Positions 24,163 to 61,366 of a DNA stretch of 64,000 bases are shown here, one piece after another; within the stretch, counting starts at the first letter, position 1; every line of letters starts with the position of its first letter. This stretch comes from Bilabrum cf. latius (Eukaryota). Location of the stretch: contig OZ237750.1 of assembly GCA_965178125.1 (NCBI GenBank), forward strand, positions 310,001-374,000, written 5' to 3'. Below the pieces are notes generated by a model, which had not been told where the DNA came from, did no database searches, and worked only from the letters and a program-made list of their open reading frames with translations. A program made the position numbers and the translations under genes.

Positions 24163-24560
24163 TTGTTCTAACGAGACCGCAGGCTTTCCGCTGGGTTCGC
24201 CACTTTGAAACTGGCTCGAAGCGCGTCACCCGCGACCATGCACTGCAGCTGCCTCACCGGCTTTTTGTCTCTCTGTCAGCAGTAGGACTATCTGCAATGA
24301 CAGGTCCGAAAAATACCATATCACCCCTACTTGGATAGACGATACGTTATTGATTTGAGATGCCGTAAGCTTTGCTGAAAAGTGGAACATTGACTGCTGC
24401 TTTCACGCTACCTCTGACCAATGCATCCCAAGGCAGTCTTCATGCTTGCGCAGCCTTACCGCCAATTCACATGGACTACCAAGTGGTAACCAGTGGAGCA
24501 TGTTAGTAATATGACTGATTATGTCTTTCCCAGCTCTCGAAATGCTTCACATAGGCCTCT

Positions 24561-28584: not shown

Positions 28585-28887
28585 GAACGGCTACTAACCG
28601 GTCAATGTTAAGTGCACCTTACCATGTTGTCGACCACGTGGAATTTGGAATTCAGGTCCGGGTGTTAGAGCATGGAGTGCATTTTGCATCGAATTGAGCT
28701 ACGGAGTAGGGCGTCGATGGCGGTAAGAGCTCATTCGAAGTACGCACCACTGGCCTGGTATGCAAGCGGGCGACACAGGCGCCGCGTAGCACAACCAACA
28801 CCTGCAGCGTGTCGGATACAAATTAGATTACGGTGTACGTAAAGACGACGGTTCGCGTCTGGGCGACCATCCAACAAGCGCCATCCA

Positions 28888-29862: not shown

Positions 29863-29976
29863 TGCGCTCACCACAATGATCCAAAGGGAAGCTCCTGGAC
29901 TTCCCGGCGGGCCGGAACCTTCGCCGGCGGACAGTTGCCGTTGCTACTTGCTTTAGTTTAAAGCAGTGCTGCGGTG

Positions 29977-35460: not shown

Positions 35461-35716
35461 CATGGTTGGGGTCAGATCGTTGCTGCTGATAGTTGTGGTG
35501 GTGGCTGTCCTACTACTCTACAGGAATGCATCTTGTTACGGACCCCCCAGCATCAGATACAGGTGTCCTGTGCTACGCCCTGCCGCCGCCGGCCTCCGCT
35601 GGCGACGATGCGGTTGTAACCTTCTTCGCACGATCATATCCAGGTCGGTACTGTGTTATCCCTCTCGCAACCGCTTCGTTTTCTTGTCATTTCCATTCAA
35701 TAAACACATTGGAGGT

Positions 35717-37606: not shown

Positions 37607-37705
37607 GGGAGATCTTGAATGCACAGAAGCACGCATGGCATAGCAGTTATGGCTATTATATTGGTTCAAGTCGCGCAAGGGCCTGCCTATCTCATTTGTC
37701 TTGCA

Positions 37706-38295: not shown

Positions 38296-39854
38296 ATGGC
38301 GTCCATCGAATCAGATAAAGAATCTAAAGCTCTAAGCCAGGATCGGGCAGGATCGGATGATGATGAAAGCATCAAGGTGATCGGCAAAGACGGCCAGCCG
38401 GACGAAACTCTACACAACGGCATGGTCGTCCTTTTCAGAGACAGGGACAGGGATGAAAGCAGGCCATATCCGAATTCAGGCGATTGGGTTGGTCTGGCTC
38501 TTAAAATTCGCGTCACCAAATCTAAGGTTGGGCTTCGCGCGACCAAGGCAGGCATCGACGACAAAAATGTTATCGCTGCTTCGGCAGCAATCGATGGCGG
38601 ACCTATCCCAAATCTGCACTGGATCAAGACTGGACAAAAAGGTGCGGATCTAGCATCTCTCGCATCGGCTGCGTGCAAGATGAAGCTCGGGGAAGTTGCC
38701 ATCGTTGGATCCCGAGCTCTTTACCTTAGCCCGCTTGTAGATGCTAGTGGCAAGCACAAAGGCAAGTGTAGCATCGACGATGACGTGACGGTTGTTGTTC
38801 GTCTTGTAGCAATTCGTCGCAAGCTACCGCCAACTTCGAACGTGCCTGCAGCTAGACGAGTGAGTACCAGTGGCAGTGGTACAGGTAATACCTCGCGGGA
38901 TGCCGAGATAATTCTGTAGCGATGCTGCGTTCATTTTGCGCCTCCTTTGTTTGCTGCAATGTTACCCTTGCAACGCAGCTTGAGATAGCAAATGATGCTC
39001 GAAAGGATGGAAACGGTTACTTCAAAGCAGGTGACTGGGTGCGGGCGGGGCAGCTGTACCACGAAGCACTTGCTTACGCGGAAAGTGCTCGCCTGCGCGC
39101 CAAGGGATTGACACAGGACGCGCAGAGCGCCAAACAATCAAATGAAGCAAACCCCTCTGGTTCTATTGGAAAGGACAATGAAGCCGAGCACGATTCGGAT
39201 GACAGTGATAGCGATACCGCGCGTGGAGACACCAAGGGGAGCGAGGAAGCCGCCGGTGGTGGTGCCGCCGGTTCGGCTGCAGCAGCTGCAGATACACCCA
39301 CATCAGCTCCACACGCTGATAGTCATAGAATCGACGAGGATTTTCTCAGAAAGTGCACGGAGCAGACGGGTGCGCTGTGGAGCAACCTCAGCCTGGTGTG
39401 CCTGAAGAGGGGCAAGCCCATGCAAGCGGAGTCCAACGCCAGCCGAGCGATCAACTACAGCGGCCCGCATCGTCCCAAGGCGTACTACCGCAGGGCACTC
39501 GCGAGGCGCGAGGTAGGTAAAGAGGAAGCTGCCCTGGATGATGTGAGGGGCGGGCTTGCCATCACCCAGGACCAGGTCCAGAGGGCCGCGCTCCATGCCG
39601 TCATGAAAGACATCCTCGACCGGAGAACCAGCGAGCGAAGAAACAGGAAAAACATGGCAAAGAGAATGTTCGGGCTGGACGAAGAAAGCAAGCAGGCAGC
39701 GAAGGAGGGCAAGCGAAGGAGGGGGCTGTACGAGGACTAGTACGGGCCACCGGCAGCGCCGTGGTCTTTGGACTGGTGCATGGAGAAGCTGGATCAAGCG
39801 GGTGCCAAGTGCTGGAGGTCTATTGAATATGTCTGTTGCTGTCGATGCTTGTAA
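38296..39854 (+). CDS. Degenerate FKBP-like domain plus TPR protein with Cys-rich C-terminus
   Basis: FKBP-like ACKMKLGEVAIV..VTVVVRLVAI; intron 38860-38978. TPRs: RKDGNGYFKAGDW..YHEAL, LWSNLSLVCLK, PKAYYRRALAR. TAG 39738-39740 reads through to ...YVCCCRCL followed by TAA 39852-39854. Confidence 0.8.
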
Positions 39855-39987
39855 TGACGCACAGACCACTGATTTTTGGGCGGGGTTCGGCCCTGAAGGT
39901 CCTTCTGCTGCTCGTGCAGTTCAGTGCTCCGAATCCATCCGTTGGGGCTCACGATAAAACCAAAATACACTCGATCCTCTTTAAACT

Positions 39988-42900: not shown

Positions 42901-45900
42901 GACGCGGCTCATGACCTGAGGAGGACCCCACAGCGCGGCAAAGGCAGGACTCGAGAGGCCCGGTCACAGGTAGAGATGGACACGGTGGATGAGAGTCTTT
43001 CCGGGCAGCAGAGTGCAAGGGCAAGGGCGCTCCTCCAGGTGAAGCAAAGGCTACGCGGGCTAGAGAAGCAGCTGCAAGAGTCTGACTAGCGGAAGCAGAA
43101 GCGGCGACTTGGGGCGGCATCGCTGGAAGAGGACGAAATGGCCGTCGTTGAGAGGCGCGAGTATCTCTCCGATGATTCCATCGTCCGCGATGTTTTAAAG
43201 GTTTGCGCAGATGCGGGTGCGCTGCGGAACGATCTGCAGGACGAGAGAGAGAAGCGAAGGGGTCTCGAACGACGCGTGCTGGCGCTGGGGATGCGATTGG
43301 CCGCAGTCCAGTCCACGCTTGAGACGTAGACGAAGGTTGCGCGGGAGCAGGGTCTCATCGACATGTGGAGCCTTCGTCGAGGCAGACAGCTCCTGCTCGG
43401 GCGGCACCCAGGCAGCCCTGGATTCAGGGATGGCCCGGGGACTGTGGGACTCATGCTGGCGCTGCTGCAGCGAGCCGAGAATTGGGGCATGGCCGGGGGT
43501 CGCCTGGGCTACGCGGCTGCTGGGATCCGCACCCCAAGTACTGCCAGACAGCGCGAGCTAGACGACTTGTACAGCTCCCCCGAGCAGATCCAGAGGCGGA
43601 CGCAGGCAGTCTCCAGGGCTTGGCTTCGGTCGTTTCGCCTGGGACTATCTATGGTAGGCGGGGGCAGCGCAGGGGCCAATGGAGGCCGGGCCCTCAGCAG
43701 CTGTATTCGTAGCTTGGTTGGCGCAACAGTCGCTGGCATGCGTGCCGAGTCCTTGCAGCGCCTTCCCATTTTCGGTGCAAGCGGGTTTGCGGCTCGGCTG
43801 CTGTGGCTGAAGGCATGCTCCCTCCCGCTTGCAGACATCGCACGGAACTATCCAATGTCTACCAGAGGCCGCACTCCCTCGAGATCTGCAGCGAGAAACA
43901 GAGGCTTCTCATTTGCTGCAGATGCAGACTCGAGCATTGGAATTAACACGCCGGTTGCATCTGCCCAGGTAGCAGCCGGACAGCAGCCCAGCGGCAATGC
44001 GCTCGAAATCATCACGATGGGCGGCACGGCAGCCGGGTCCATTGCATGGTCCAATCACTTCGAGGGCGAGCGCGTGCAGAGACACGAGAGTGTCCGAGGG
44101 GCACACGCCGCTATGCTGCAGCTCGTGGCACCCACGCAGCAGCTGGTGCAGAGAGCAGCGCTCGAGGAGGCGGGTCTGGTGCAACCCAGTGTGTTGGTAA
44201 ACAATGGCACTGCAACACCCTCCAGCGCTCGATTCAATTCCAGCAAGGTGGTTTGGAAAGATCAGGGCGGTGGAAACTAGGATTCCGAAGCTGCAACCGG
44301 CATTGAGCGAAGGCGTGCGCGACCAGACCAGGCAAGTCCACTGCTGCAGCGGCTGCGGGCAAAGAGGCAGCACTTGACCGGACAGCGGATGCTTGCCGAT
44401 GCTTAGGAGCAGTAGGAGCAAAATTCAGCAGCGAGGGGTTCCTTGTCTGCCCGATCCTCCAGTCGGGGCAGGAAGGGTGGCCTTGCTCGTCTTGCCATCA
44501 AGCACGGTGCCTCGGAGGAACCGACTGGGGCCAAGAAGCTCTCTGGCCTAAAGATTGCGGCTGCCAACGATCAGGAAGCTTACGCCGCGGAGACTATGCC
44601 CTCTCTGCTTCAATGGGCATCGCGGGCACAGGGATAGGCCGGCTGGTACCAGGCGGGCTTGCCGCCCGCTCTGGGACTCTCAGGTGAAATGCCCTCCAAT
44701 GCAAGCGGGTCGAGCGCAGCTCAGTCAAGTGCAGCACTTGCAGGTGCGTCAGCTGCTGACAATCCTATTGTGGATCCGTTCAGGGGAGCCTTAGTCCGAG
44801 CCATGAGCAACCCCGGATCGTACGCTCCACCTCATGACGCGTTCGAGAGTATCTAGCCCGGATGGCTGTCTCTCTCCACCGTCACCGTGTTGCTGAACCC
44901 TTCCATGCTGCTAGACAGCGTGAGGAAAGGGGCTGTCTAGCGCGCTGTGGACAAGGGTCGTCTAGACAAGGCCCACGCACGCAGCATGCACTAGCCCGGG
45001 AGCGTGACGGAGCGAATCTCTGGCGTTCGAGACCATAGCGGTGGGAGGGATGCAGATGGAATTGACGTGACTGCTAGACCAAGCAGAGAAAGAGGGCAAG
45101 TACCAGCACCGTCGACAGCCAACCGGCGTGGCAGTATCGTGCGCAGCATCCTCAAGCACCACGAGGCCCAGGCCCAAAGAAACGCGCAGAAGAAAGGCAG
45201 AAGGGGCAGCGTCGCAGAGGGCGGTCAGGCCGCGGTTGCGGCACAGATTGGGCGCCGCGGCTCGCTGTCGCTGCTTCCTGAGATCGATCGCGTTGCAGGG
45301 ACCGCGCTGGAGGAGCTCCTGGCTGTGGTTCCCAAGCTGACTTCAGATGAGGCAGCCGTGTATCGGAGGAGCGCGACGGCTGCCGCATTGCGTCGGATGG
45401 ACAGGACGATCGCGTGGCAGGCCGCAAGGCGCAAGCTCGCAAGGACAAGACTGGACGCGCTGGGCGGGGAGGGCCTAGTGCCCGCACAAGTGGCGGAGTG
45501 TATCGGCGATATCCTGAGGCGGGGTGCCTTCCAGGGGTATCAAGACGGAACAGACGCGCTCACTGCACTTGATGCTTTCAAACAGGCTCAGGGGCGCGAG
45601 ACTGCAGAGCAAGAAGCAGCAGCGCTTCTGAAGCAGCAGGCAGGATAGAAGGGCGCCAGCCGCACTGCTGAGGCCTTGGGAGCTAGGCCAGCCGCACACA
45701 GGACAGCCGGCGATGACCTGGCCGAGCGCGCAAGGGCGCGATCTCTCAAGCTTCTGAGCAAGGTGGAAGAGGCAAGGGCAAGGATACACCCCTTGTCCAT
45801 TGCCATGGGCATGGCCAGAGTCGTCCTGCAGGCATATCTAGAAATGCCGCACGATGCAGTCTTCGCGAAGCAGCTTCACCAGGCTACCGTACCAACATCC

Positions 45901-48900
45901 GAGTCCGATCAGTTCAGGGGCGTTGTCAATGCAATTCAGGCCGTTGATGACGGGAGCACCAGTCCTGCTGCTGCTGGTGCTGGTGCTACTCTTGCAGGCG
46001 TCTGGCGAGCAGATGCTATCCCTAGTGAGCTGGCTGATGCGTCGCCTGATGCTCCCCAGCCCAAGTCGCCGCCTAGGAGGGGCCGTAGCCCCAAGCGAGC
46101 AAGCAGTGCAGCTGATGCACACGAGCACGACTCGCACGATCGCCTCCAAGACATCGAAACGGAAGTGCTGCAGCACTGTCTCCCAGACATGCAGATAGGA
46201 GAAGGGAAGGGAGGTGCAGCACAGCCGGCCTCATCCAAGAAGAAGCGCAAGAGATCTGGCGCCAAAACAGGGTTAGTTCAAGCAGCGTTTGCATCTTTCT
46301 TTGGTATTCGATCGCTGCAGCTGCACCAAGCCCTAGCCATTGCGAGCTGCTTTCAGATCGGCTCGCCTGCTGAGACGATGCGAGCTTTGCGGTGGTGTGG
46401 TCTGGCGCCAAGCATCCGAAAGGCAGACAGATACGTGTTGGCACCTATGCTTCCGCAGCCGAATGCGTTGGCCTGGGGTATTCGGGCGCACAGTGTGCCG
46501 CTGAAGACTATCGAATCGGCCTCACTGTTGCCGTCTGATGCCTCGGCACGTGGCAGTGGCTCGTCGCTCTCATACTATGGCTCGCATGCTGGCACCCGCA
46601 GCGTAGCGCCGATCGATCCGGTTGAGTACACAACAGCGACAGACGTAGGGCTGCCCAGCGGTGCAATTGGGCCCACATATGGGAGTTCAGGTAGCTCACC
46701 TTCGCGATCGACAGCCGGTGCTTTGAACCAGCGAGGCGTCTATTAGCTAGCCGCAGGCCGCACTTCTACTTGTAGCCCCGACACAGCTACGCCCGCCGAT
46801 TAGCCGCGCACGACGGGACCCAGCGCCCATGGTGCGAGCCACTGCTTCACCTTGCTTGAGACGAATCACCTCGCGCTGGAAGTCGTGAACTGGATGCTCG
46901 ACAATGGGGGTGTCGAGCAGGTGGTGCACCGGACCAGCGCGAAGCTCTACGCAGCAGGGTGCCGCAACGAGAAGGTCGCGCACGTCGGGCTCAGCCGCCC
47001 CGGAACTATGGGTGCGGCCCATGGCCAGGAGGACTGGATTCCGACTTATCACGCCTCGGTCGGTCGGTTTCTCTTGCGCGTGTTTCTTGCGGAGCAGCTT
47101 GCTCACAGGCAAGAGGCTGAGGCATTGGCTCGATCCAGGGAAGGTGGGCGTGCAGGGGTTCGGAAAGGTGGTAGCAAGAGCAAGAAGGCGGGGAACAGTG
47201 GTGCAGAAGGATCTACGGTCCAGTCCAACGAAAGTCAAGACAAGGCAGACGCAAAGAAGAAGCTCAAGGCAGTCACATCGGCGGCTCGTCGGTCTTCGGC
47301 GGGAGCCGTAAGCCAAGCCCACGGAGGTTCATCAGCTGCTTCAGTCTCTGATGAGCCTGCTGTGCCTGATGCGCGGAGCCCGGCCGGGCGAGCTTACATG
47401 GTACGCATGACGATGGGAATTGACGACTCCGTGGAGCGCCAGGCAGCTGCATTCGAGACAGCGGTTACGATTCACTCGTCCTTGTCCAGCCGGTGCCGAT
47501 GCTTTGGTGTTCTCCTCGGCCTTACCGACACGCCTTCAATTGGGGTGGACCCGGCTTCTAGGGCCTACTGTAGGCTAAGGCGGCTCGAAGTGGCCCACGA
47601 GTCTGCAAAGCGCGGCCTCCTCATTGCCTCCCAGTCGCTCGCGTGGCCCTGCCCACTAGACCACAGCCCTGCAGCCTTTGCTCAACCAGGTAGTGCTGGA
47701 GACGGGCACGAGGACCGCACCATCGACGAAGAGGTTCAGCAGGAGGCCAGTATCATGTCCATGGATGTGCTGCGGGCCACATCTGATTGGCGGCAGATGT
47801 TTTTGGAAGAAGGAGGGGAGGAAACGGAGCAAGACTCTCCACCGTCAGGTAGAGCCAGCAGCCAATCGCCCACACGCGGTGGGGCAGGGCGTTCCAAGTA
47901 GCAGGTAGACACTGCTCGTTTCCATGCTTGTGATTGCGCGTAGCAGCTAGCTTTGTGGGAGCGGTACTGCTGCCTGCTGGCCCTGGCTGTCGATACGGCG
48001 CTAGACGGCGAGAAGGGTGCGATTTCGAGCGAGGTTATCGCCTCGTCTGCAGCTCGATTCTACCTCTTGAGGCGGGTGGGTCTCGAGTGCAAGGACCAGT
48101 TCGAGATGGGAAGCGGGGACATCAAGCTACTCGGGGCAGGGAGGCGATCTGGAAGCCGCAAGACAGACGGCCAAATGCAACCACCAAGCAACTGCGAGCA
48201 CGAGTTGGTGACCTGCGTCGGGGCTCCGGCCGGGGAGCTCGTGCCGCTTCCAGAGAGCGTGAATGCTCGAGGCGCTGCAATTCTTCGGCCCGGGGTCAAG
48301 ACGCTGTGGGCGCAGGAGCAGCAGGGGAACTCGTCCACCGTGAGGTTGGGGAACAGCCAGGCGGTGGCCTGTCATGACTTGCTAGAGGCGCGACTCTTCG
48401 AGGGCCTCGTGCAGCCGAACGGGCCTGTTGGTGGGGCGGGTGCATCGCATGGTGGTGGCACGAGCAGCTCGGAGGGCGGACCACCGCCTGCGGTTGCTCG
48501 GTCTGTCAGCATGACGGAAGCAGCCACGGATACGCTGACGAGTTTCGGGCCAGTCATTGACGGCTTCGTGCGCCTGTACAGGCACTAGGAGTAGGAGGTT
48601 CTTGGACCTGGCCATGGCTTGATTGGCGACCTGCCGATCGACGCCAAGAAATCGATCGCTCCGCTGCTGCCCGGCAGTCCCATCGGGAGCGGGCTGGTGC
48701 AGCTGCAGGGCGGCTGGACGATGCTGACCGTGGATCGAGTGAGGTCAATGTGCTACCGCTGCCTGTCGCAAGGCCTTGATGCCCGTGAATCGGACCGCAT
48801 GCAGGCGCAGCTGCTTTCTTCCGTGCTCGCTGAGACAATGCAGCAGAGGGGCCGGGAGCAGGACCTCCTGAAGCGAGCAGCCGAGCGGAGCACCGACATC

Positions 48901-49179
48901 CGGTCCAAGGATATCAAGGCCGGAGAGGACGACCCGCAGGGCTCCAGCCAGGCTGGCGTCCCTCTGGTCGAGCTAGACCGGGCGATATGCGGCCAGACGG
49001 AGAGGCTCGCGGCGATCGACCATGTTGTGAGCAGGCTCGAGTCGCACCTGCAGGTGGGGCACCCTGGGTTGTTCGCGGTGGATGATGTGGTTGAGCTGGC
49101 GATGGACGTTTCGCTGCTCTACTGGGTGCTCTACCCGGTGGGAAGTGGGGCCGGGCAGGCAATGGAAGACGGAGAATGA
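39988..49179 (+). CDS. Very large hypothetical protein (~3063 aa with TAG=Gln), with coiled-coil and low-complexity segments
   Basis: A 9192-nt single frame runs from ATG 39988 (preceded by an in-frame TAA at 39982) to TGA 49177-49179. It contains 22 TAGs and no TAA or TGA, and unites 12 separate ORF-track fragments. Confidence 0.8.
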
Positions 49180-49372
49180 TTCATTTCAGCCGTGCATCCG
49201 TAACTCAAAATCGTTTGGCGACACTACAGTGCAAAGTCCTGCCCTGCCATAGACCAAGCCACAGGCTGGCCCATACGACTAGCTTTGTTTGCAAGAGCTT
49301 GAGCCCGCAAAACTATGAACTCTATCTCGAAATGACATATCCTCAAATGGCAGTTTGCATGGATTCAATAGC

Positions 49373-51511
49373 ATGTCGTCGCCGCTTCCTCCGAGTCGGC
49401 TTGCGACCACCGGGATCGGATCAGTTCAGGAGGCGAGCACAACATGCAATATTCCACAATTAGGCACTATGCACGGTGCCAAATACGGTCAAAGGCCTCG
49501 CAGAAAGGGTATATCGAGGAAAAAGCTAAGCTACGCCCGTCTGTTGGATGATAGCGTCGCAAGCAGTTCTGTTCGGAGCAGCCGAACTGGCAACTCTGAG
49601 AACATGATTGGTTCACCAGAAGAGCACGCAGCATCCAAACACGCAGGGCCCAAGAGGGGGAAATATAGAGAAGTACTCGACAAGTTTGCAGCAGCTGCAG
49701 ATATCGCCTCTCCCTCGCTGAGCAAGAGCGTGCAGTCGCCGGACAAGGTTGGCGCCATCGGTGACAGGCGGATTTCTGCCGGCGGCGCAAGCTCCTTCTC
49801 CGATATCGAAAGCGCATTGCTAAAGAAGCTTGGACCAAGCCCTGGAATACGCAAACCACTCTCTCCGCTCCCTTCAAACTCTGCGTCTCGTGCTGGCCGG
49901 AGCTCAAGGCGCGATTCACAACTGTCTGAGATTCCTGAGAAGCGACGGGTTCGTTTTGCTGCTGGGGACGACATAGAGCAGACGTCTCATTTCCGCAAAA
50001 CGAGTCCAGCTACTCATGCAGTTGACAATGCTCAGAAGCGCCTGATGCGCAAGGTTCTTCGTGCCAGCAAACCGTCTGCCAGAGCGAGGCGCAGCGCATT
50101 GGCCTCGTTCACTCAGCCCAACGATGCTGATGGCGAAAATGCTTCGCAAGAGCAGCCTTTAGAGGACAACCAACCTATCGCAAGGCCTAGTCCGGATCAT
50201 CACACAAGCGATGAGGCCGTTCGTGAGGTACGCAAGACTTCATCAAGGTCAGATGCGAGAGTGGTCTGGCCAGCGAGCAATTCGAGTGAGCAAGCTGCCG
50301 AGCAGTAGCAGGAAGCCGCTCGTGAGTAGGCACCCGTGACCCAATTGAGCTCTCCACGTGAAATTTCTGGTGCTATCCGGTCTCCAGTTGGCGTGGATGC
50401 AGAGTGCGATCCTGCCTTTGCGGGGGAGGTGGACGAGTCGAACGGTGCGGCGCATGATATCGGTGGCGCGAGGCAGACCATCGGAGCGGATTCAAACGTG
50501 GTAGACAAAGCACCTGAGCTGGATATCTCAACGAGCATCAAATATGTCACTGAGACAGCAGCGCACGAGATTCCAGCGGAAGAGGCAGCAACAAGAACGC
50601 AAGGAGGTGGTGCCGATCGCCGGCAACAGAGCAAGGTACTCCAGCCAACTTCAAGCAAATTGCTGGCACCCGAAGGTCCGTCGTCGCCAGAGATCATTAT
50701 GCTTGACGCTTAGAAGGCTATGCCGCAAGTTATCGAAGCGGAGCGCGAGGATCAGCCAGTTGCACAGGCGGCGAGTCCAGAGGCCGAGGCCGCCTCTTCC
50801 CCCTCCTCCTCCTCGTCCTCCTCCTCCTCGTCTTCCTGGTCGTCATACACGACCGTGGGTGGGCAAGAGCTGCAGCCGAAGCCAGGACCATGGCAATCCT
50901 TTGCAGACACGGATGAAATTGTGCCCGGCGTGACGATGGCCGACATAGAGCGCGCCGCGCTTGCCAACAAGCACGGCAAGCTTGGCCGGCGCTCGGCCGG
51001 GGTGTCCCTGGCACCAGGCAGGTGAGCATCAATTATGCCATGAATAGCACGCCTCGGCAGCTACACTGTCCCATCTATAGTATTTCACTGGACTGCCCTC
51101 CATGCCTAGACTTTCCTTCCCCCTCTCCATTCACGCAGCCTGCTGATGCTGGACACGTCCCGCGTGCAAGCGAGACCTCTGCCTGTCGGCGCCATGCCCC
51201 GCGAGATCAGAGAGATACTGTCGCAGCAGCTCAAGTTCCAGAACAAAATCGACCGATTGCCCCTCGTAGGGCACAGCAAGCAGCTCACGAGATCCCTCAA
51301 AAGGCGCCGCAGGGTCAGGGACAAGGTGCTCGCCAAGGTCATCGAGAAGGTACCGATGCCCGAGTGGGACGAGAAGCACGGCGAAGGCACCAAAGCGGAC
51401 AAAATTGCTGCGGTTAAGGAGATACTGCGCAGGAGGGAGGTGTGCAAAGCTCGCTAGGAGCTTCTGGCGAAGGACTTGAAGGTCGTGCTCGGTAGGAAGC
51501 GTCGGCGGTGA
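49373..51511 (+). CDS. Hypothetical Ser/Arg/Lys-rich protein
   Basis: ORFs 49355, 50336 and 50720 are joined by TAGs (50306, 50327, 50711). After intron 51022-51138 there is a further TAG at 51455 and TGA at 51509-51511. It contains KRRVRF (an RVxF-like PP1 motif) and a basic C-terminus. Confidence 0.65.
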
Positions 51512-52130
51512 TGGATCCTTGACGACAAGGACGAGAAGTGCGATTTGCCCTGAGAAGGACCATTCCAGTGATAATTTTGAGCATATCGTAACGTACAGCT
51601 TTGCAATTCCATATTTTGTGGTATACAAAGCCCATTCTGCATCTCAATCCGATCGGATCCGGAAGAATACTTTACTCTTCGAATAAATTCGACACTGAAA
51701 GAGACAAAAACCTAATGTATGCGGCATTTGCTATGTTTGGCTTGACATATTCTGCGTTTGGTGCTACTGATCCCGTTTTAGAGCTTCCAATCATGGATTC
51801 AGAAGCAATTGCACTTGCTTCTGACTGCATCACACAGCCAGATGCTAGCTGTAGACTGCAGATCTGAGCCGAAACTTGACTGTTGGTTGCACCTAATCTC
51901 CTGGCAGATTGCAGGTACTGTGGGTACCTCCCTCCAACCAGACGTTCCAGTTCGCAGAGCGGGGCATCATGGGCATAGTTCACGTGCCTGTCAACCCCCC
52001 GGCCTCGGGACCGGACGACAACTGCATCAATGCTTGGGACCCCCTACCAGTCCTACCAAGCAAAAATGAAGGCCAACGGCAACGCGGCGGGGTGCCCCGC
52101 GCTGAGGGGACCGACGCGCAGCCCGTGACA

Positions 52131-52412
52131 CGGTGAACTAATCGCACCCACTAAGGCGCGTGGGGCTGGGCAGTAAGCGGTGAACTAATTGCACCCACTA
52201 AGGCGCGTGGGGCTGGGCAGTAAGCGGTGAACTAATCGCACCCACTAAGGCGCGTGGGGCTGGGCAGTAAGCGGTTGACTAATGGCACCCACTAAGGCGC
52301 GTGGGGCTGGGCAGTAAGCGGTTGACTAATGGCACCCACTATGGCGCGTGGGGCTGGGCAGTAAGCGGTTGACTAATGGCACCCACTATGGCGCGTGGGG
52401 CTGGGCAGTAAG
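52131..52412. repeat. Minisatellite: 6 x 47-bp head-to-tail tandem repeat
   Basis: The unit cggtgaactaatcgcacccactaaggcgcgtggggctgggcagtaag starts at 52131, 52178, 52225, 52272, 52319 and 52366, with no spacers. Confidence 0.97.
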
Positions 52413-52765
52413 GCAGGGTCGCGCGATAGCTCACCCCCATGCGCGACGAGAGGTGATGTGCGAGTGGCACATGGTGCTGGAAAATTCATGTGTACGTGGG
52501 GGGGGGGGGGGGAAGAGCGGCTGGCCAGTACTTGCGTGGGATCATTGTAGACATGCAAATCTCAAGTATGTAGTTCAAGAAAAAACAGACGCCGCAAAAC
52601 TGGACGCTGCTCCCAAGGCCAGACACTGCCATTGCATTGCGCCAAGGGCAACGAGTCCGACTAGAGGGAAGCAGCAGCTGCAGTCGCGGGGGCACGTGCC
52701 CTGTGGCACGCCATTGATGCCGTTCATTTCCATGGCTTCTCCTTTGCTTCTCCTTTTGCGACGAA

Positions 52766-53404
52766 TCAAGCGCTATCTGAAGTATCCTCTCGCCCAGCCG
52801 GCCCATCCGCCTCCCCGTCAAGCAGGACACCAGCAGCCACCTCCGGGTGAGTTGCGTGCGGGTGCTCGTTTGCATGAGCAATGTACGACAGTGCACCGTT
52901 CCAAAGAACAGAGACGCAGTTCGTAAACAGAATCTAGCTCTGCAGCGGGACGACCTTGAAATTAACGAACTGTGCCGCGGGCCATATCGCCCAATTGACG
53001 AGCATCGTGTGCCAAAATTTCGATCGAATCATCTCCACTGGAGACTTCCCCTCAATGACAGCTTTAACGCCATAAAATCCAACCACAAATGTCGGAGCCC
53101 ACAAAAGCTGGTCGGCCGCAACACGAGCCAACACTGCCCGCATGTGGCCCCCTGGGAACTTCCTAGCTAAGAATGGGTACCAATACACCAGTACAGGTGC
53201 CACAAATACTGTCCGGATTCCTCCAATCTTGCAGGTACGCTTCCAGTCCCAATTGCGACTAGCAGATTTGTCAATAAAACGTTCCAGCTACTAGCAAGCA
53301 ATATCTCCGCCGCACCCGATTCCAAACGCAAGGCACATATTACCTACAAGAGGATATCTCTACAGTGAACTGCTATACAGGTATCTCAGGCGATGCCATG
53401 GCAT
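52766..53404 (-). CDS. Mpv17/PMP22 family membrane protein (~212 aa)
   Basis: Translates as MPWHRLRYLYSSSL[TAG]RYPL..GDIAC[TAG][TAG]LE..WDWKRT..VAPVLVYWYPFL..DQLLWAP..NWAIWPAAQFVNFKVVPLQS[TAG]ILFTNCVSVLWNGALS. Ends at TGA 52766-52768. Confidence 0.92.
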
Positions 53405-53547
53405 CACCAGTGTTGAAAACCACACAGTTTTCGTCGTCCACTGAAGCTGGCGCCGCGCACGATGCGACCAGGTGGTTCCGCAAGTACTTGCTCGGTGCGA
53501 GCATTGCGCAAATTATAGGGTATTCCATCGGAAATCGTGCGCCAAAC

Positions 53548-55110
53548 ATGTCAGTTCCATTATTTCAGCTTCACACACGACGAGATCTTGGGCCAATGCT
53601 TGGATGTGGCTATGAGTGGAAGGTTTATCTTCCGTCTTAGCTAGTACTATCTGCGTCGTGCGGGCGATCGTGCGTTTGGAAGGTGGCAAACAGAGAGTAG
53701 TCACTTCAATCACTAGATTTATTGTACCGCATCCCGTTTACGCCCTTTCTTACCGGGTATGGCGAAGTTCCTGTCGAGGACATCAAGGTTCGCTCCGCAA
53801 GTATTATTGGTGCTCGGACAATGTCAGCATACCTGACTGAAAGAGCGGACTGCGATTTGCTTGGTCGTGTAGCATAGTACAATGGAGAGCTGAATGAGAA
53901 GTACGGTTTTGAAGCAGCTGGTGCCATTATCGCGGCGTCTCTATGGCTGAAACATACTGTGGGAATCTGCGTGGGGGACATCAAGCTGGAGAACTACCTC
54001 GCACTGGACAAGGGGCGCCGCATTGCTCTTTGTGACATTGGCATGGGTGTTCGCTGCGGTATTCCCTGCAGGCTGGCCCCCAATAGGAACTCACAGTACT
54101 TCGCCCCGGAAGCACTTGCCTCGATTCGCAACGGGACTTCCTTCGACCCCGAGCTGGCCGACGTCTTCTCCATCGGATGCTGCATCGTTGGGCTGCTCAC
54201 AGGACGACGAGTCGTCTTCACCGAGAGCGGCAGAGCAGTATACCCCGCCACCATTGGCAGATTCGGCCCGGGAGTCCTCTAGCTGATCGGCATGACCCTG
54301 GATACGAACCCCGCCAAGCGAGCCGGGCTTGAGGAGCTGGGCGACCATCCCATCATCCGAAACACCCAGAGCATGCAGACGCTGCGCCTCATGATGTACG
54401 GACGTAAGCCTTGGCTTGCGAGCATGGCCCATCCTCGGGGCGCGGGTGTCGTGGCTTGGTGTGCGCTGGGGGAGCCCGCATCGAAGCACCACATGCCACG
54501 TGAGCAGCAAAATGTTCAGAGCACCAGGGGGCCGGAGGAAGCCGCCTCACAGGCCTCCACCAGCACCGTGTCGCTGTAGACTGCACGGTTGCATAGCAGG
54601 GGTGTCAAAGAGGGGGGCTCTACATCCTCCTCACACGCCGGACGCGGCAACTCGCGCGATTCAGGTCAAAGCGGCGAGGCCGGGACGACTGGCACCCGGA
54701 CACGAGGTGCGCGGGGAGACCATGTCCAGTGCTCGCCCGCGGATGCTACGGTCGGTACGGGCTAGATGAGAATGGAATCGGTCTCCTCGCCCGACGCCAC
54801 GAGTCCCGCGGTTCCCGATTTTTCGTGGAGCCCCGCCTCCACAGCCTCCTCGAAATCTCTGGGAGGAGGAGGGGCGCGTGCACGCCGAGGGCTGATGCGG
54901 CGAGGGCGCGCCGGGTCTGCGAGGTGCACTCCCAAGGCATCGCCTCGGGAGCGTGGCAAGGGGGGCCGTTCGTGCGAGGCCGCCGGGCCATCTCCTGAGT
55001 ATCTGGACATGCGTGAGCTGTACGCTGCGGCACGGGGATGCCTGCTGCCCTCGTGCTCCGAGGTGCTGCTATGGGGGTGTGCCGTGGCAGGGAGCCGTGG
55101 CAGTGTGTGA
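53548..55110 (+). CDS. Divergent Ser/Thr protein kinase (~520 aa)
   Basis: Motifs: GICVGDIKLENYL, ALCDIG, QYFAPE, ADVFSIGC, LDTNPAKR..HPII. Six in-frame TAGs (53638, 53698, 53875, 54280, 54577, 54763); ends in TGA. Confidence 0.75.
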
Positions 55111-55511
55111 TGCCCGTGTGGATGATGAAGAGGTGGCTATTTTGCTGGTGAATTGTAGTTGCATACTACATGCCGTACGTGCACCTCACGTCAGTTTTTT
55201 GGTCGCTGGAACAACTGGTTGCAACCAGTCCGCGGTCAGTCGCCAATCGAGTCATCGCATTCTTCGCAGCTCTTGGGCCTTACTCGATTCTACAGGTCTC
55301 GCGAATAAGTTTTTACAGGCATGTCTGATGCGTTTATCGTGCCCGGGCGGTGAGCGAAGCTTCCTTTTCACACAATTGGACGTGCGCACTCGCAGAATCC
55401 TCGCTTAGTCTTCTTTGACGTTTCCAAAAACAAGCTCTCGCATGCAGCTCCCGAGGCAGAAAGCGGCAGTCCCATCCTTCTCCGGCACAGTTCAGTCCGA
55501 ACGAGCCGCCA

Positions 55512-58500
55512 ATGCAAGTTCGAGCGGCTTCAATCAAGAAGTCAGCGACCGTGGCTCCACCCTCGCTGCCTGGAGCGTCCACCACAGGTGATAGACCGGT
55601 CGCCACGATCCGAACGACTGGAGAAATATCGCGATCCCAGCAGTCCTCTGCCTCAATGGTATCTGCCGGCGTCGCTTCGAGGCCACGAAGGCTGCGGCGG
55701 CGGCCTCGAGGAAAGGACGATGATAGCAGCTGCGCCGGTCCGGAAGCACGGAATGGCCGAGCTGCCGGTCATGTGTAGTCAAGCACACATGTAGGACAAT
55801 CGCTAGGCACCGGAGCTTGGGAAGGAGGGCTGCAAGAGCGATCAGAGGTTTCGATCCTGAGATCATCTGGGGCGGGCACTGGAGCTGGCGGCCCACCCTT
55901 TGCGCATTCCGGCCCGCCCCCTCCAGCCGCAACCAAGCGAAGATCTGGGGCTTGGAATGAGGATGACAGCAACGAGCTGCGCAGGGCGGTGGCTCGCGTA
56001 GGTACGGACAATTGGGAGCTTGTGAGAACACCAACGAACTTGGTCGCAAGCAAGGCGCCTTCTATTCCATTGAGTACCCGTGCAGGCATCGATTGCACCC
56101 GTACGCTTTCATTTCATTTTACGTGTTTGCAGGTGCAAAGCCTTATGAGCCGCCCTTGGACCGCCAAGGTCCTGCGAGCTCGCTGGAACAAGGTAATCAA
56201 GCAAGCCAGAGTTAAGGGTGGCTGGATCGCCGCCGAGGACTTGCAGCTGAAAGAACTCGTCGTGTCCATGGGCGGCCCCGAGGGCATCCAATGGAGCGCA
56301 GTCGCCATGAAGATGGACACCAACAGGGATGGGAAGCAGTGCAGGGACCGCTGGCACAACCACGTCGACCCTAGCATACGAAGGGGAAAGTGGACGCCCG
56401 AAGAGGACGACAGACTTTTCTTGTTGCAGAAACGGATCGGAAATAGATGGGCAGACATCGCCAAGCTGCTTAACGGCCGCACTGAAAACATGTGCAAGAA
56501 TCGTTACAACTCCAAGGCGAAGTCCGTGTGGGCCTCGGACCGATGGCCCAGGTTCGACGGCAAGCCGCAGTCGTACATCGACGAGTACCTGGGGATGGGC
56601 AACTCCAAGCCGGCGGACGCCGTAAAGGAAGCCAAGGCAGCTGCTGTGGAGCGCACTGCGACTGCCCTCCGCATGCAAGAGGTCACTAGGATGCGTGGGC
56701 ACAGCGTTGACATGGACGGGAGCGACGAGGACGAGGACGAGGACGGTCATGCAGGCAAGAGAGCCGGCAGGGGCAGGGGCAGGGCAGGCGCGCGGGGCTC
56801 GAGGCGGAGTGGTCCCCAGGGAACAATGGGAAGAGGCAGCGGTCCATCCAGCGGGGCCTCGGCCTCGTCGGCAGGAATGCGGGGCCCCGGCACCAGTAGC
56901 AGGGGAGTGGTGCACGGCGTTGCTGGCTGGGGGCAATTCACGCTGCACGGTTAGGAGGACCTCGCCCGTGCTGTGCGGGATGCGGGGGACAGCTTCCTTA
57001 TCGCTGGGGGTAGCACCCGCGGGATCGATGCGTCGCTGTATAGGGGTCGAGGCGGCGCGCGCAGCGACGCCGAGGCTGTAGGGCGCATGCGCAGGCGGCA
57101 GGTCACTGCCTCCCCGCCTCCGCCTGGTAACGACCAGGATGTGCTGAGGGATTGGGCCCTCAGGACAGCCTCCACGTTTGCCTACGCGCAGAGAGACAAA
57201 TTGATTCCGGATCCGTTCGCGGGCGTGGATCCGGAGCTGGTGTTGAGGATCGCCGCAGCAGCTGGTGAGATGCCACCGCAGTCCGACCAGGAGAAGAGAC
57301 AGACGGTCGCCTTGGTGGCCCAGCTGCTGGCACAAGCACACTTCCAGCTGCAGCGGATGAGTGAGAGCGGAGATGGGGCCACAGAGGAGTAGACAGCCGG
57401 CTCTAGCGTGCCTGAACCAATGTCTGCGGAGGAATTTAACATGGAGAGAGGGCGCGGCGCCGGCAGGTCCGTTGCCGAGGGCGAGGGCGAGGGCGAGGCC
57501 ATGGAAGGCGACATGGATGAACTTGGGTCGGAAAGCGGAAGCAAGACGCGCTCCTCCGCGTCCAATTCGGTGGCTGGGTACAGCGGCAGCACGGGGATCA
57601 CGGGGATAAGCCCGTCTGGCGAATCCACCCCCTCGCCCGCCGTGCTTCAAACGGGAAGGGCGCGAGGGATGGGAGGGAATGGAGGCAGCCAGACTTCCTA
57701 TTACCCGTCGACTTCGCAGCTCGACCAATCCAATTCCGATTTCTTTTTGGGGACCCGCATCGCCAGGCCGGCGCCTGTCTCTGCCGACCGTCCCGCGCAT
57801 GAAGTGGAGCAGTACGTCGGTGCGATGGCCAGGGCACTCATCAGGGTCGTGGGATACATGCAAGACAGGATGGTCATTCCCAGGCACTTCACGCCGCGCG
57901 AGGCCGAAGATGGGGACGACAACAAAGACGAAGAGCCTGAGGCGGAAAGTGGAGAAATGATGGCTGCGGCTGCTAGCTCTGGTGCAGCTGCGGACACGAC
58001 AGCGTTCCCCATGTCTCACAGCTCTGTTGCAAGGCACTGGGACTCTAGCGTGCGAGGAAGCGGCGACGGGCTCGGTTTAGGCGCGGTTCCAATGACGGCA
58101 GATTCTCCCGGTGCACTCCCGCAACGCTCGCCGACATCTCTGGCTGCGTCTGGCCAGGAAAACGGATACTTTGCACAGGCAAGTTCCAGCGCGCGGGCTG
58201 GAGCAACCGCCAGCGATGCTGGACTGACACGCGAGCCAGCTGCGCTCCCGTCAGCCGCCCCGGCAGCAGCCTCTCCCATGCGGGCGGGGGAAGGCGGATC
58301 CCCGTCAGCATCCAGCGCGCACGGGAGGTCCTCCGTCGCTCTCACGGTCAGCACGGAGTCCTCGGCTGCAGCCATGGCGCAGCCCAGGAGCGGCAGCGGC
58401 AGTCACGCAGGTGATGGCGGCGGCAGCTCGTACCATTCGAAGCAGCAGCCAGGTCAGAAAGGATCGTCCGGGATGGAAAGCGTGCCGAGGTCTCCAATCG

Positions 58501-61256
58501 TGTCTCCCACATCAATGACCGAGCGAGTGCCGCAATGGTCCCCTGGGCCCTCGGCAGCGGTAGCGGATGGTTCGGCGCACAGCGTCGGGCGCTTCGTGAG
58601 CTACGGAAGCGGAAGCGCCGCTGATGATGATGACGAGAACAACATGCGGTCTCCGCAACTGGATGCCATGCAGTCTCCCGGCCTCGGCCCTGACGTGCCC
58701 CAAGACCCGAATCCGCACGACATGTCCGGCGTATCCTCCGGCGGACTACAGCGCGGCAGATCAGTCGACGTGCAGCAGCTCTGGAGGCTGTAGTAGCAGG
58801 GAAGCAGTGCAAGTACTGGAATAACCTCTCAATCGCAGGGCCGCCAGGGCAAGCAGGCAGCTCCGACGGGACCTCTGTTCGCGATGGATGCAGTCAATAC
58901 AATCGCAGAGGGTCGCGAGCGGGACCAGGATGAGGGCTTGCGGCTTGAAACTGGCGAGCAGCAGCCGAGTCGCTCAAGCAGATTGAGAAGAGCACCTGCT
59001 AATGGCAGGGGTATTTCTCGAGGTGGGAGGGCGGCCCAGGTCTCCTTATCGCTCGGACGAGGCGGTGCGCAGCGGTTGATGGGGCCGGGCAGCAGCAGCG
59101 GGTCTGGAAGCAGCAGTGCAAGAGGCGACGAGATCGACATGTCGCCACGCTCTGGTTCATTTGGCGGTCGGTCTGGCATGTGGGGCCGAGGCAGCCTCGC
59201 GGGAGGCAGGTCTCCTCTCCGTGATGACGGTGACGGTGACTCTGGCATTGATTTTCGGGGCGGCGGGGCCGATGGTGGAGTGGGAGGGAGGGTGGGGCAG
59301 CGGCGCGGCATCTTGTCAATGCCGCCGAGGGAGGGTTCCTAGCGGGACGATGCAAGTGGTCACGCCGGCCGTGGCGGCACGGTTGGGATTGCTGTGCAAG
59401 GACAAGGACAAGGGCAAGGCACAGGCGGCATGCAAGGCGCCATGCTCATGAGCAACACGAGCGAGGCCCCCTCATACATCGGGCTGACCCCCTCTTCCCC
59501 CAGGTTGCCCAGGGGGGCAAGCGCCACGGCAGGAGGGGCCATCGACTTTTTTGGGCCCAGCGCGCTCGCGGCCGTGTCAGGTGCATCGCATGGCGGTACA
59601 AGGCGGCGCGATCGGATCGGTGATTTGGCCAGGCACTCTTCCCGTGGCTCCGATCTTGAGACGCCCCTGAGCTCTCCGCGGCTGCCTTCATCTAGTGCAT
59701 GGGGAGCACCTGGCCAGCTGCGTGACTCGTAGTAGTCGGATACGGCGCGCAGTAGTGCGTCAGATTTGCCTCGAGGAGTGTAGCCCATGCCCGGCAGCGG
59801 CGCCAGCTCACCCACCACCGAGGTGGCCATGCAGGTGGCCCGCATGAGCCTTCAGGGCGAGGACGAAAAGGAAAAGGATTATGGTGTTGGGAATGGAGCT
59901 GAAGATAGCAACAATGGACAGAAGGCATACAACCGCAGCAGTACTTCTGGTGCTGGTGCCGGGGCAGAGCAGACCAGCGATAGAGGCACCCAGCAAGACA
60001 TGCAGTCCAGCGCGCCATCGATGGGAAGCGGCGGCTTCATCGTGCCACGGATTGAAGTCGCGCGGCTGTCCGTCGGCTCCGAATCGGTGAACAGCGGCGT
60101 CCACGGCAACGAAGGCGGGGTCCACGGCTCCCATGCGGAAACGGAAGCCACGGCCACGCCGACCAGCGGCAGGGGATCCGCCAGTGACGACAGCCATGGT
60201 CATCGTCGTGAGGGCAGGCCTCTGATATGGGGTAGTGCCAGTGCCGGTGCCAGTGCCAGTGCCAGTGCAGGGGCAGCGGTAGGAGGACAGCTGGGTCGCA
60301 CACACAGCAGCGGGCTGTCTTCGTTTCACGGTGGCAGTCCTCCGCGGCCCGCGATGAGGGGGCTAAAGTCCTCCCCTGGGATGGATAGAAGCGGTGGTAG
60401 TCGAGGTGGGGCACAGGGAGATGCCAGGCGCAGTGGTGGCCATGGGAATGGCAGTGGCACTGGCAGTGGCAGGGGCAGGGGATCTAGGTCGAGAGAGCAG
60501 AAGTTCCCCTCAAGCAACGTGCAGGGCACGCCCACTGGCGGCATCGCACTGATGGGGACGCCCGTGGATGGTATGCTGTCTCCTGCTGATGCGTGGGGCG
60601 GCTCTTTTGGTGGTGGTGGTTCAGGTGCGGATGCGGGCGGTGCGGATGGCGGCATCGCGGGAATCTTGGGGTCTGGGACCGTGCTGGGCTCGGGCATGGG
60701 TGTGACGAGTGGGGGTGGCAGGCGCGCCCGGGCCCGGTTACCCGTTCGAGGGAATGCGGGTGAAAGCAGGTCACGCTCCAGCCAGGAGCACTTGTACCGC
60801 AGCTCGGGCAAGCGGGCTGGGTCGGGGCCTGCTTCCATGCTCGGTAGCGGCAGCAGCACGGGAAGGGGCAGGGGCGGGGGGCAGTTTTTTGTCGCCGGTG
60901 GGCAGGAAGGGATGATGGGTCCGTCTCAAGACTCAGCCTCGGTGGGCAGCCGGAGCGATTCTGGCTCCGGATCCGGATCGGATGACCACTTGCTTCGCGC
61001 GTCGATTGGGTCTCTGGGCAGCTTGACTCCCGCTGGTGGTTCCGAGCGGTTTTGGGGGCAGCGACAGCAGCGTGATGGGTCTGTCGGTGGCAATAGGGGC
61101 GTGGTTTCCTCGAGTCGGCCTCCGGAAGATGAAGGGGGGACACGATTGTCGGCCTCTGGTGTTTCGCAGGTGCAGGTGCTGGACAGTCTGCTGCAGGCAG
61201 GCCCCGACTCGATGCGGTCGGACGGGGCCACTGGCAGGGGAGATATTCGAGATTAA
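55512..61256 (+). CDS. R1R2R3-type Myb transcription factor with long Gly/Ser-rich tail (~1877 aa)
   Basis: Three Myb repeats: GAWNEDDSNELRRAVARVGTDNWEL|VQSL..RARWNKV, KGGWIAAEDLQL..WSAVA..RDGKQCRDRWHNHVDP, and RGKWTPEED..GNRWADIAKLLNGRTENMCKNRY. Intron 56022-56132; nine in-frame TAGs; ends at TAA 61254-61256. Confidence 0.85.
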
Positions 61257-61366
61257 TGGATCGTGGGGTTTCCAGGCTGTTGCTCGTTTCGTTGTTCTCA
61301 GAATGCTTCGTTTGCTTCGATTCAACTCACTCTCAGTTGCAACCGGCTGCCGACATCAACCGATGG

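Follow-up and report, generated by a model that had tools for sequence, protein, structure and literature searches.

Many genes in the 64-kb stretch of DNA analysed here (the window; GC content 60.6%) carry TAG codons inside their reading frames, which raises the question of whether UAG has changed its meaning alone or together with UAA. We examined the window along with L001, a syntenic 11-kb metagenome contig from a relative that is about 89% identical and lower in GC; both are genomic DNA. We consider it highly probable that the window comes from the nuclear genome of an intron-poor stramenopile protist of about 60% GC and that its genes use a code of the NCBI table 15 type, in which UAG encodes glutamine while UAA and UGA are stops. 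A first-pass annotation had proposed such a code rather than table 6, and the proposal fits every test made on the window and L001: TAG occurs at conserved glutamines, TAA is absent in frame and some genes end in TAA. Coordinates are given in Table 1.

Table 1. Positions of genes, introns and informative codons in the window
Feature	Position	Strand	Remarks
CHAT1	4405-8394	-	tandem paralog of CHAT2; 10 TAG
CHAT2	9081-12431	-	tandem paralog of CHAT1; 9 TAG
Kin1	12622-20916 plus exon 1	-	CDC15 / MAP3K-epsilon-type kinase
Kin1 TAG codon 107	20596-20598	-	
Kin1 intron	20911-21002	-	92 nt, GTAAGT..CAG; holds TAA 20917-20919
Kin1 exon 1	21003-21053	-	MAAVPQNGPVQVVAGRF
IFT88	21619-24162	+	0 TAG; GC3 0.80; TGA stop; used for placement and to find the relative's contig
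Small conserved membrane-protein (TM) gene	28234-28560	-	TGA end; L001 ortholog ends in TAA
Methyltransf_22 gene	28888-29952	-	5 TAG; TGA stop
Upstream in-frame TAA	29959-29961	+	six codons upstream of the PAN/GH127 start, ATG 29977 (gene with 3 TAG, TGA stop)
TPR-repeat gene, exons	about 38296-38859, 38979-39851	+	
TPR-repeat gene, intron	38860-38978	+	GTGAGT..CAG
TPR-repeat gene, end	39852-39857	+	tandem TAA-TGA after ...CCCRCL tail
Upstream in-frame TAA	39982-39984	+	two codons before ATG 39988 of a 3,064-codon gene (22 in-frame TAG, TGA stop 49177-49179)
Myb-domain gene, stop TAA	61254-61256	+	ORF 55419-61256; 9 in-frame TAG
Myb-domain gene, intron	56022-56132	+	GTGAGA..CAG, 111 nt; in an X5 contig record 56021 is followed directly by 56133, no letters between
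Anoctamin exon 1	61367-61790	+	start ATG 61367; exon 2 from 61939
Anoctamin intron	61791-61938	+	GTGAGG..CAG

The main census was performed on 15 stop-to-stop gene models of the window, comprising 17,519 codons. TAG was found in frame 83 times (about 4.7 per 1,000 codons), TAA and TGA not once, and 13 of the 15 models contained at least one in-frame TAG. Three further models, the methyltransferase gene, g32596 on the minus strand and anoctamin exon 1, contributed 8 additional TAG, so that the earlier count of about 90 in-frame TAG against no TAA was reproduced. The related species represented by L001 agrees: its 2,911 codons include 19 TAG and no TAA. Together the two organisms provided about 20,400 codons, a number at which a very rare sense TAA would escape.

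Several gene models required introns to be taken into account, all of them of the ordinary GT-AG type. The TAA at 20917-20919 apparently cuts the kinase domain of Kin1, but it is intronic: if the 92-nt intron is not assumed, the kinase domain is left without a start codon. The best named matches of Kin1 are oomycete CDC15 kinases, and the identity of IFT88 was confirmed by Protein Atlas, which yielded no taxonomic information. Anoctamin was recognized by a Pfam match at 3.5e-86, and a homolog search returned a single relative, at 97%, from Logan. A plus-strand ORF at 28727-29977 was discarded as antisense noise over the Methyltransf_22 gene. Contigs from four independent sequencing runs (X1, X5, X6 and X7) were compared with positions 44001-64000 and reproduced the window sequence; at the anoctamin gene the X5 contig match begins at 61937 and is preceded by 185 unplaced letters. 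Low-complexity repeats produced many contig "joints" near 56.7, 57.5 and 60.2 kb, which were disregarded.

We then considered which codons terminate genes. The stop is in view for 14 window genes, 12 of which end in TGA and 2 in TAA, with one more TGA if the small TM gene is added; the first pass had counted 16 against 2. The first stop other than TAG is a TAA in the Myb and TPR genes of the window and in three of the five L001 genes (the g24519 ortholog, a JmjC-like gene and the small TM gene). None of these five TAA-ended C-termini is conserved in distant homologs, and the assignment of TAA as a stop is therefore drawn from context and not from alignment. The Myb gene is the sole case whose context truly separates a TAA stop from a sense TAA, and we find it convincing because the anoctamin gene starts some 110 nt further on in a different frame. 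In-frame read-through past this TAA would run for 117 codons, rich in C, W and F and abruptly different in composition, and would overlap anoctamin exon 1 (ATG 61367) out of frame, as had been claimed for this gene end; the next in-frame stop is 113 codons away. The second TAA end noted in the first pass, that of a gene labelled FKBP-TPR, does follow a ...CCCRCL tail but cannot tell stop from sense, because the next codon (39855-39857) is TGA. The TPR repeats of this gene match Pfam; an FKBP domain was not confirmed there. The two in-frame TAAs described just upstream of start codons were located at 39982 and 29959.

Downstream of stops, TAA is not avoided. Beyond 14 TGA stops, the first in-frame TAA or TGA to be met was TAA 7 times, at distances of 3 to 124 codons, showing that in-frame TAA is common once coding ends. 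In four of the five TAA-ended genes a TGA follows in frame within 1 to 13 codons, where short read-through tails would be possible. We had considered that TAA stops might be specially backed by a nearby TGA, an idea that was dropped since TGA stops show similar next-stop distances.

These distances bear on the possibility that TAA is neither a sense codon nor an efficient stop, TGA being the only working terminator, so that TAA ends would be read through or would stall until a nearby TGA. The prevalence of TGA ends in the window and the TGA found shortly after most TAA ends, the TPR gene with its TAA-TGA tandem among them, are what such a situation would produce. However, TGA-ended genes lie equally close to their next in-frame stop (3, 4, 5, 5, 6, 8 codons and so on), the Myb TAA is followed by no in-frame TGA for 118 codons, a stretch within which the next gene begins, and the majority of the L001 genes end in TAA at a lower GC content. 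We know of no eukaryote with an eRF1 blind to UAA while UAA is unreassigned. This explanation is improbable, although it is the least improbable of the alternatives.

If UAA and UGA are both stops, one may still ask whether TAG also terminates some genes. A dual, context-dependent TAG of the Condylostoma type would be read as glutamine internally and as a stop near mRNA 3' ends, leaving UAG and UAA only partly decoupled. In 64 kb of sequence in which TAG is taken as sense, a TAG that ended a gene just ahead of a TGA or TAA would indeed escape notice. Conserved C-termini speak against it. In the L001 IFT88 a TAG stands 66 codons before the stop; it is followed by a C-terminal motif that the window protein conserves, and hence is read through. 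Moreover, TGA closes the C-terminus of IFT88, conserved between window and L001, and likewise that of the L001 2-hydroxyacid dehydrogenase, which is conserved in human GRHPR. A dual TAG appears improbable too, marginally more so than the preceding explanation.

A third possibility is that TAA has been reassigned along with TAG, as in NCBI table 6 (ciliate, dasycladacean, hexamitid), where UAA and UAG both encode glutamine, and that it is rare merely through high GC. TAA is the rarest stop triplet overall in the window (199 and 170 occurrences on the two strands), and coupled reassignment of UAR is described in PMC5304391 as by far the commonest eukaryotic pattern. Table 6 shares TAG=Gln with the code proposed here but needs sense TAA, of which none was seen in either census. 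A-ending partner codons are not that rare, with a CAA/CAG ratio of 0.32 and a GAA/GAG ratio of 0.37. If TAA stood to TAG as CAA to CAG, about 26 in-frame TAA would be expected in the window, and the absence of any has P ~4e-12; with the A/G ratios of CAR, AAR, GAR and TTR the expectation ranges from 16 to 31 (P 1e-7 to 4e-14), and for L001 it is 8.2 (P 2.8e-4). Out of frame, TAA is plentiful: the gene-model spans contain 27 and 47 in the other two sense frames and 33, 42 and 51 in the antisense frames, and L001 has 40 off-frame TAA. The shortage of in-frame TAA therefore far exceeds the effect of GC content, and TAA is kept out of reading frames as strictly as TGA.

We repeated the analysis in a non-circular way, with TGA as the sole stop, and listed the 22 resulting frames of at least 450 codons. 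In those holding real genes TAA was found solely at the 5' or 3' edges or in introns, never among the TAGs, and in no TGA-only frame of the window did a TAA have coding sequence on both sides. We also scored the sequence flanking each TAA, TAG and TGA by codon log-odds. This scoring has too little power to be used: of the 866 TAG triplets counted over all frames, 83 of them in-frame sense codons, only 7 passed on both flanks. At 0.25 not a single TAA passed, the best being 20159 (+), antisense to Kin1. Joint reassignment of TAA and TAG is strongly disfavoured, and clearly less probable than a dual TAG.

The meaning of TAG was assessed at conserved positions. The column of Kin1 TAG codon 107 is Q in 64 of the 65 aligned CDC15-type kinase homologs, and the L001 ortholog has CAG at this codon. 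In the conserved regions of IFT88 and of the Kin1 kinase, all three TAG sites in window or L001 orthologs are paired with a glutamine codon (CAA, CAA and CAG). A TAG of the L001 2-hydroxyacid dehydrogenase aligns with a Q of human GRHPR, in the part of the protein that was searched. Between the CHAT paralogs TAG stands opposite CAA twice, as in the conserved GLYSQPF block, and also opposite GAG, and TAG faces TAG in an identical block. Elsewhere the picture is looser: the column of Kin1 TAG7 is variable, with 2 of the 65 homologs having Q, one conserved-block TAG of L001 is opposite Asn in the window, and several TAG in fast-evolving regions are opposite K, E, G or other residues. An alignment with PDB entries, in which PAK kinases carry E and not Q at column 107 of Kin1, was superseded by the closer CDC15-type set. 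Finally, a contig of run X5 that lacks the 111-nt Myb intron retains 5 in-frame TAG with 0 differences. TAG is present unedited in this putative spliced transcript contig, from a run labelled "RNA? (probably DNA)"; no listed run is on record as RNA. The weakest alternative, that the in-frame TAGs are not translated as glutamine at all but stem from pseudogenes or assembly error, are edited to CAG in the RNA or stand for a different amino acid, could draw on the non-glutamine partners in poorly conserved regions and on the E of PAK kinases, but is barely credible given that the in-frame counts are incompatible with decay or error, that four runs agree on the sequence, that the spliced contig keeps its TAG, and that glutamine prevails both in the closer kinase homologs and at the conserved ortholog sites.

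In order to place the organism we built a tree of IFT88, in which the window protein falls within a 22-row clade with Hondaea, oomycetes and ochrophytes (SH-aLRT 99), inside an environmental subclade on a long stem. This single protein tree, with its long stem, and the names of the best hits suggest that the organism is a stramenopile. Scans of genome contigs and viral contigs yielded no further IFT88 relative, and the window methyltransferase had no tblastn match in L001.

A code in which UAG and UAA are decoupled is not new in type; it is rare but already documented in a few other protists. UAG=Gln with UAA and UGA as stops has been published for Iotanema spirale (Fornicata; Panek et al. 2017, PMC5304391), and McGowan et al. 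(2024, PMC11687900) describe reassignment of UAG only, to glutamine, in Protocruzia tuzeti and in two lineages of phyllopharyngean ciliates. Iotanema resembles the present case in that UAG alone changed, to glutamine, with UAA kept as terminator; in having no convincing in-frame UAA or UGA, its apparent cases lying in retained introns as does the Kin1 TAA; and in the predicted mechanism, a tRNA-Gln with anticodon CUA. It differs in being a metamonad and not a stramenopile, in using UAA as its main stop where TGA prevails here (12 of 14 genes), and in being documented by a transcriptome of hundreds of genes, where the present data are genomic sequences of 64 kb and 11 kb. Protocruzia tuzeti and the phyllopharyngeans are ciliates, whereas the present organism groups with stramenopiles in the IFT88 tree and has ordinary GT-AG introns. 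Other decoupled nuclear codes, those of the rhizarian exLh (UAG=Leu), Scotinosphaera (UAG=Ser) and the ciliate PL0344 (UAA=Lys, UAG=Glu), likewise give UAG and UAA different meanings but differ in the amino acid (PMC5304391, PMC11687900, PMC10553269). We found no report of a nuclear code variant in stramenopiles in the literature searched, including the Vipsania preprint, PMC12574857 and PMC12152300.

Whether this is the first nuclear code change in Stramenopiles, with a clade sampled from the environment, to which at least the window organism and its L001 relative belong, having independently arrived at UAG=Gln with a UAA stop in a GC-rich, TGA-dominated genome, seems to us evenly balanced. 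The loss and capture of UAG are usually attributed to AT pressure, and a GC-rich, TGA-dominated setting is the opposite; UAG=Gln in such a genome would bear on the codon-capture and ambiguous-intermediate models. UAG and UAA nearly always change meaning together, so that each lineage splitting them is a natural experiment showing how eRF1 can ignore UAG yet read UAA and how a CUA tRNA-Gln becomes established. A stramenopile case, if true, would add a new supergroup and a new independent lineage for testing the tRNA-Gln(CUA) and eRF1 changes behind UAG/UAA discrimination.

By analogy with published work on other lineages, UAG would be read by a tRNA-Gln with anticodon CUA, which would differ from tRNA-Gln(CUG) by one change and whose C34 would be unable to pair with the A of UAA. 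A tRNA with a UUA anticodon would be lacking, and eRF1 would not recognize UAG while keeping its recognition of UAA and UGA. tRNA scans of both the window and L001 returned no gene, Rfam gave no match at the gathering score, and eRF1 is encoded in neither of the two sequences.

The proposed code has a practical consequence, as gene callers applying the standard code cut genes at every TAG. A database IFT88 protein of the relative (P0002, 680 aa) appears to be just the stretch between the two TAG codons of its gene, at positions 58 and 754. Public proteomes of this clade are therefore probably fragmented.

With TAG taken as sense, the window (60.6% GC over 64 kb) consists of large genes, mostly of one exon each. 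Their gene content and short GT-AG introns (see table) therefore identify it as eukaryotic nuclear DNA. Neither a tRNA gene (tRNA scan) nor an Rfam match was found within the 64 kb.

The first-pass annotation had reported about 90 in-frame TAG and no in-frame TAA, and our counts agree. Fifteen window gene models (17,519 codons) contained 83 TAG, no TAA and no TGA in frame, and three additional models contributed 8 further TAG. The spans of these genes do contain TAA: it was counted 27 and 47 times in the two remaining sense frames and 33, 42 and 51 times in those of the antisense strand. Scaling the TAG count by the CAA/CAG (0.32), AAA/AAG, GAA/GAG or TTA/TTG ratio predicted 16 to 31 in-frame TAA against 0 observed (P between 1e-7 and 4e-14), and therefore GC content does not account for the missing codon. 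The 15 models are TAA-free by construction, and frames with TGA as sole stop provided the non-circular check. In those holding real genes, TAA was confined to the frame edges; for example, a 3,190-codon frame had TAA at codons 116 and 125, followed by 3,064 TAA-free codons with all 22 TAG, and the Myb frame had TAA at codon 1,945. The single TAA that seemingly cuts a domain, 20917-20919 in the CDC15 / MAP3K-epsilon-type kinase (Kin1), sits within a 92-nt GTAAGT..CAG intron; once this is spliced out, the 17-codon exon 1 continues in frame into the glycine-rich loop of the kinase. The in-frame TAA noted earlier just 5' of ATG 39988 and ATG 29977 are indeed present.

TAG density fell as GC3 rose, with 0 or 1 TAG in IFT88, the anoctamin body and TSP1 (GC3 about 0.80) and 3 to 8 per 1,000 codons in genes with GC3 of 0.56-0.66; IFT88 and the anoctamin body (GC3 0.80) had none, compared to 22 in the 3,064-codon gene (GC3 0.65). 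Judging from this trend, TAG may have arisen from CAG by C-to-T change in weakly constrained genes.

TAG stands for glutamine. At the column of Kin1 codon 107, in the kinase helix ahead of the HRD motif, 64 of 65 aligned CDC15 / MAP3K-epsilon-type homologs have Q and one has D, while the more distant PAK kinases have E; the column of TAG codon 7 is variable (Q in 2/65). Between the tandem paralogs CHAT1 and CHAT2, TAG faces CAA in a conserved GLYSQPF block; its other partners are GAG, CAA and, where one block is the same in both copies, TAG, and in poorly aligned regions K, G, A and others. The two proteins share 487 identical residues over 1,043 aligned columns, and CHAT1 carries long Gly-Ala dipeptide runs. 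As the protein-identical block includes the same TAG codon (CHAT1 aa 617 / CHAT2 aa 511), recent gene conversion between them is suggested. A contig of sequencing run X5 lacking the 111-nt Myb intron matched 55447-59323 with 0 differences and carried 5 in-frame TAG (our own count from the window TAG positions); these TAG therefore persist unedited in a spliced transcript. The run itself carries the label 'RNA? (probably DNA)'. Contig depth in run X1 reached 549, against about 16 nearby, at 56674-57500 and 60009-60675, with many false joints; these peaks are low-complexity GA/GGA-rich coding repeats of the Myb gene, which draw contigs from elsewhere.

TAA was found at gene ends. Past TAA 61254-61256 the G/S/A-rich tail of the Myb frame gives way to a C/W/F-rich string, and another frame opens at ATG 61367, reading as a putative anoctamin exon 1; splice sites GTGAGG 61791 and CAG 61938 connect it with the anoctamin body, which Pfam supports. 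An X5 contig match starting at 61937, with 185 unplaced letters ahead, is compatible with this splice. The change of composition and the new exon bear out the proposal that TAA stops Myb and that read-through would enter the out-of-frame anoctamin gene. Only about 110 nt (61257-61366) separate the Myb stop from the anoctamin start on the same strand, and therefore the Myb 3' UTR and terminator and the next promoter/5' UTR must be extremely compact or overlapping. The gene labelled FKBP-TPR does end in TAA after a CaaX-like tail (...CCCRCL-TAA), but TGA is the very next codon, the two readings of TAA differ by one residue, and we discarded this end as evidence; only the tail, of putative function, would favour TAA as its stop. 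Pfam detected TPR repeats and no FKBP domain in it. TGA predominates as announced, although with 12 TGA and 2 TAA among 14 window genes, plus one TGA for a small membrane-protein gene, rather than 16 versus 2. After 14 TGA stops (window and relative contig), the next in-frame TAA/TGA stop was TAA in 7, 3 to 124 codons downstream; in-frame TAA thus becomes commonplace once coding ends, against 0 in 17,519 coding codons. Several TGA stops had a second in-frame stop 3 to 8 codons on (24169-24171 TAA, 49201-49203 TAA, 37616-37618 TGA), too small a sample for judging tandem-stop enrichment.

An IFT88 search retrieved two close relatives at 88-89% identity, one of them encoded on an 11,185-bp JGI metagenome contig (L001, 56.8% GC). 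L001 is syntenic with the window for Kin1, IFT88, the g24519 ortholog and the small membrane-protein gene. The window Methyltransf_22 gene has no counterpart in L001, which has a 2-hydroxyacid dehydrogenase gene and a JmjC-like gene in its place, so synteny breaks there. The five L001 gene models (2,911 codons) contained 19 TAG; in-frame TAA numbered 0 against an expectation of 8.2 (P 2.8e-4), and off-frame TAA numbered 40. The conserved regions of IFT88 and the Kin1 kinase hold three TAG sites in all, at which the other species has CAA, CAA and CAG. The counterpart of an L001 TAG in the small membrane protein is Asn, and the searched part of the dehydrogenase has a TAG that matches Q in human GRHPR and T in two archaeal enzymes. 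One TAG of the L001 IFT88 lies 66 codons ahead of the stop and precedes a C-terminal motif that the window protein also has, so this TAG is read through. Beyond the stops of the three TAA-ended L001 genes an in-frame TGA follows 5 to 13 codons on, no shorter than past many TGA stops. The small membrane protein (about 100 residues; 65% identity between window and L001 over 105 aligned residues) has no Pfam family; its gene, between g24519 and the methyltransferase gene, had been overlooked in a long-ORF listing.

Window features and ends of the L001 genes
Feature	Position	Strand	Start or end
TSP1/PQQ-repeat protein gene	window		
CHAT1 + CHAT2, tandem CHAT-domain paralogs	4405-12431	-	
Kin1, CDC15 / MAP3K-epsilon-type kinase gene	window	-	
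Kin1 intron, short GT-AG	20911-21002	-	
IFT88 gene	window		
Small membrane-protein gene	28234-28560	-	ends TGA
PAN/GH127 protein gene	window		ATG 29977
Dcc1 gene	33298-35489	+	
TPR protein gene	window		TAA end
TPR gene intron, short GT-AG	38860-38978		
3,064-codon gene, no known family	window		ATG 39988
Second kinase gene	window		
Myb protein gene	window		TAA 61254-61256
Myb intron, short GT-AG	56022-56132		
Anoctamin gene	window		ATG 61367
Anoctamin intron, short GT-AG	61791-61938		
g24519 ortholog	L001		ends TAA; window copy ends TGA few residues past common WPC motif
Small membrane-protein gene	L001, about 8722-9030	-	ends TAA
JmjC-like gene	L001		ends TAA
IFT88 gene	L001		ends TGA
2-hydroxyacid dehydrogenase gene	L001		ends TGA, two residues from human GRHPR end

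Among the matches listed, the best named ones were brown algae, oomycetes and the labyrinthulomycete Hondaea for IFT88, and oomycete STE11/CDC15 kinases for Kin1. In a maximum-likelihood IFT88 tree of 29 rows (28 of the 120 listed matches, named and top environmental ones favoured), the window sequence and both close relatives fell inside a stramenopile clade (SH-aLRT 99), in a long-stemmed subclade of environmental sequences apart from Hondaea, oomycetes and ochrophytes. This single-gene evidence suggests that the organism is a stramenopile.

The codon counts, the identity of TAG, the TAA gene ends and L001 support the proposed decoupling of UAG from UAA, and the organism very probably reads UAG as glutamine with UAA and UGA as stops. 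Its code shares with the table 15 type the frequent in-frame TAG, their alignment with glutamine and coding sequence free of TAA and TGA, and lacks the defining feature of table 6, TAA as sense. Reassignment of UAG alone to glutamine is published for Iotanema spirale (Panek et al. 2017, PMC5304391) and, among ciliates, for Protocruzia tuzeti and for two lineages of phyllopharyngeans (PMC11687900); the latter paper also gives UAG = Leu in the rhizarian exLh and UAG = Ser in Scotinosphaera as decoupled codes. The code type is already published, and the novelty is one more lineage with it; its value lies mainly in that lineage, a putative stramenopile, and in the GC-rich, TGA-dominated setting. 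Full-text literature, with most subscription journals and supplements outside its coverage, yielded no stramenopile nuclear variant, only mitochondrial ones in Labyrinthulea. By analogy with the mechanism outlined in PMC5304391, a tRNA-Gln with anticodon CUA, one change from the common CUG isoacceptor, would decode UAG and not UAA because of a C:A mismatch, and eRF1 would have lost UAG recognition while keeping that of UAA and UGA.

The Dcc1 frame decays to an Arg/Gly-rich tail beyond about residue 440 and is overlapped by a second ORF (34649-35212); the gene probably holds an intron outside its model, so its stop stays provisional. A 416-codon ORF at 28727-29977 (+) is antisense noise over the minus-strand Methyltransf_22 gene at 28888-29952 (E 2e-11), which has 5 TAG.
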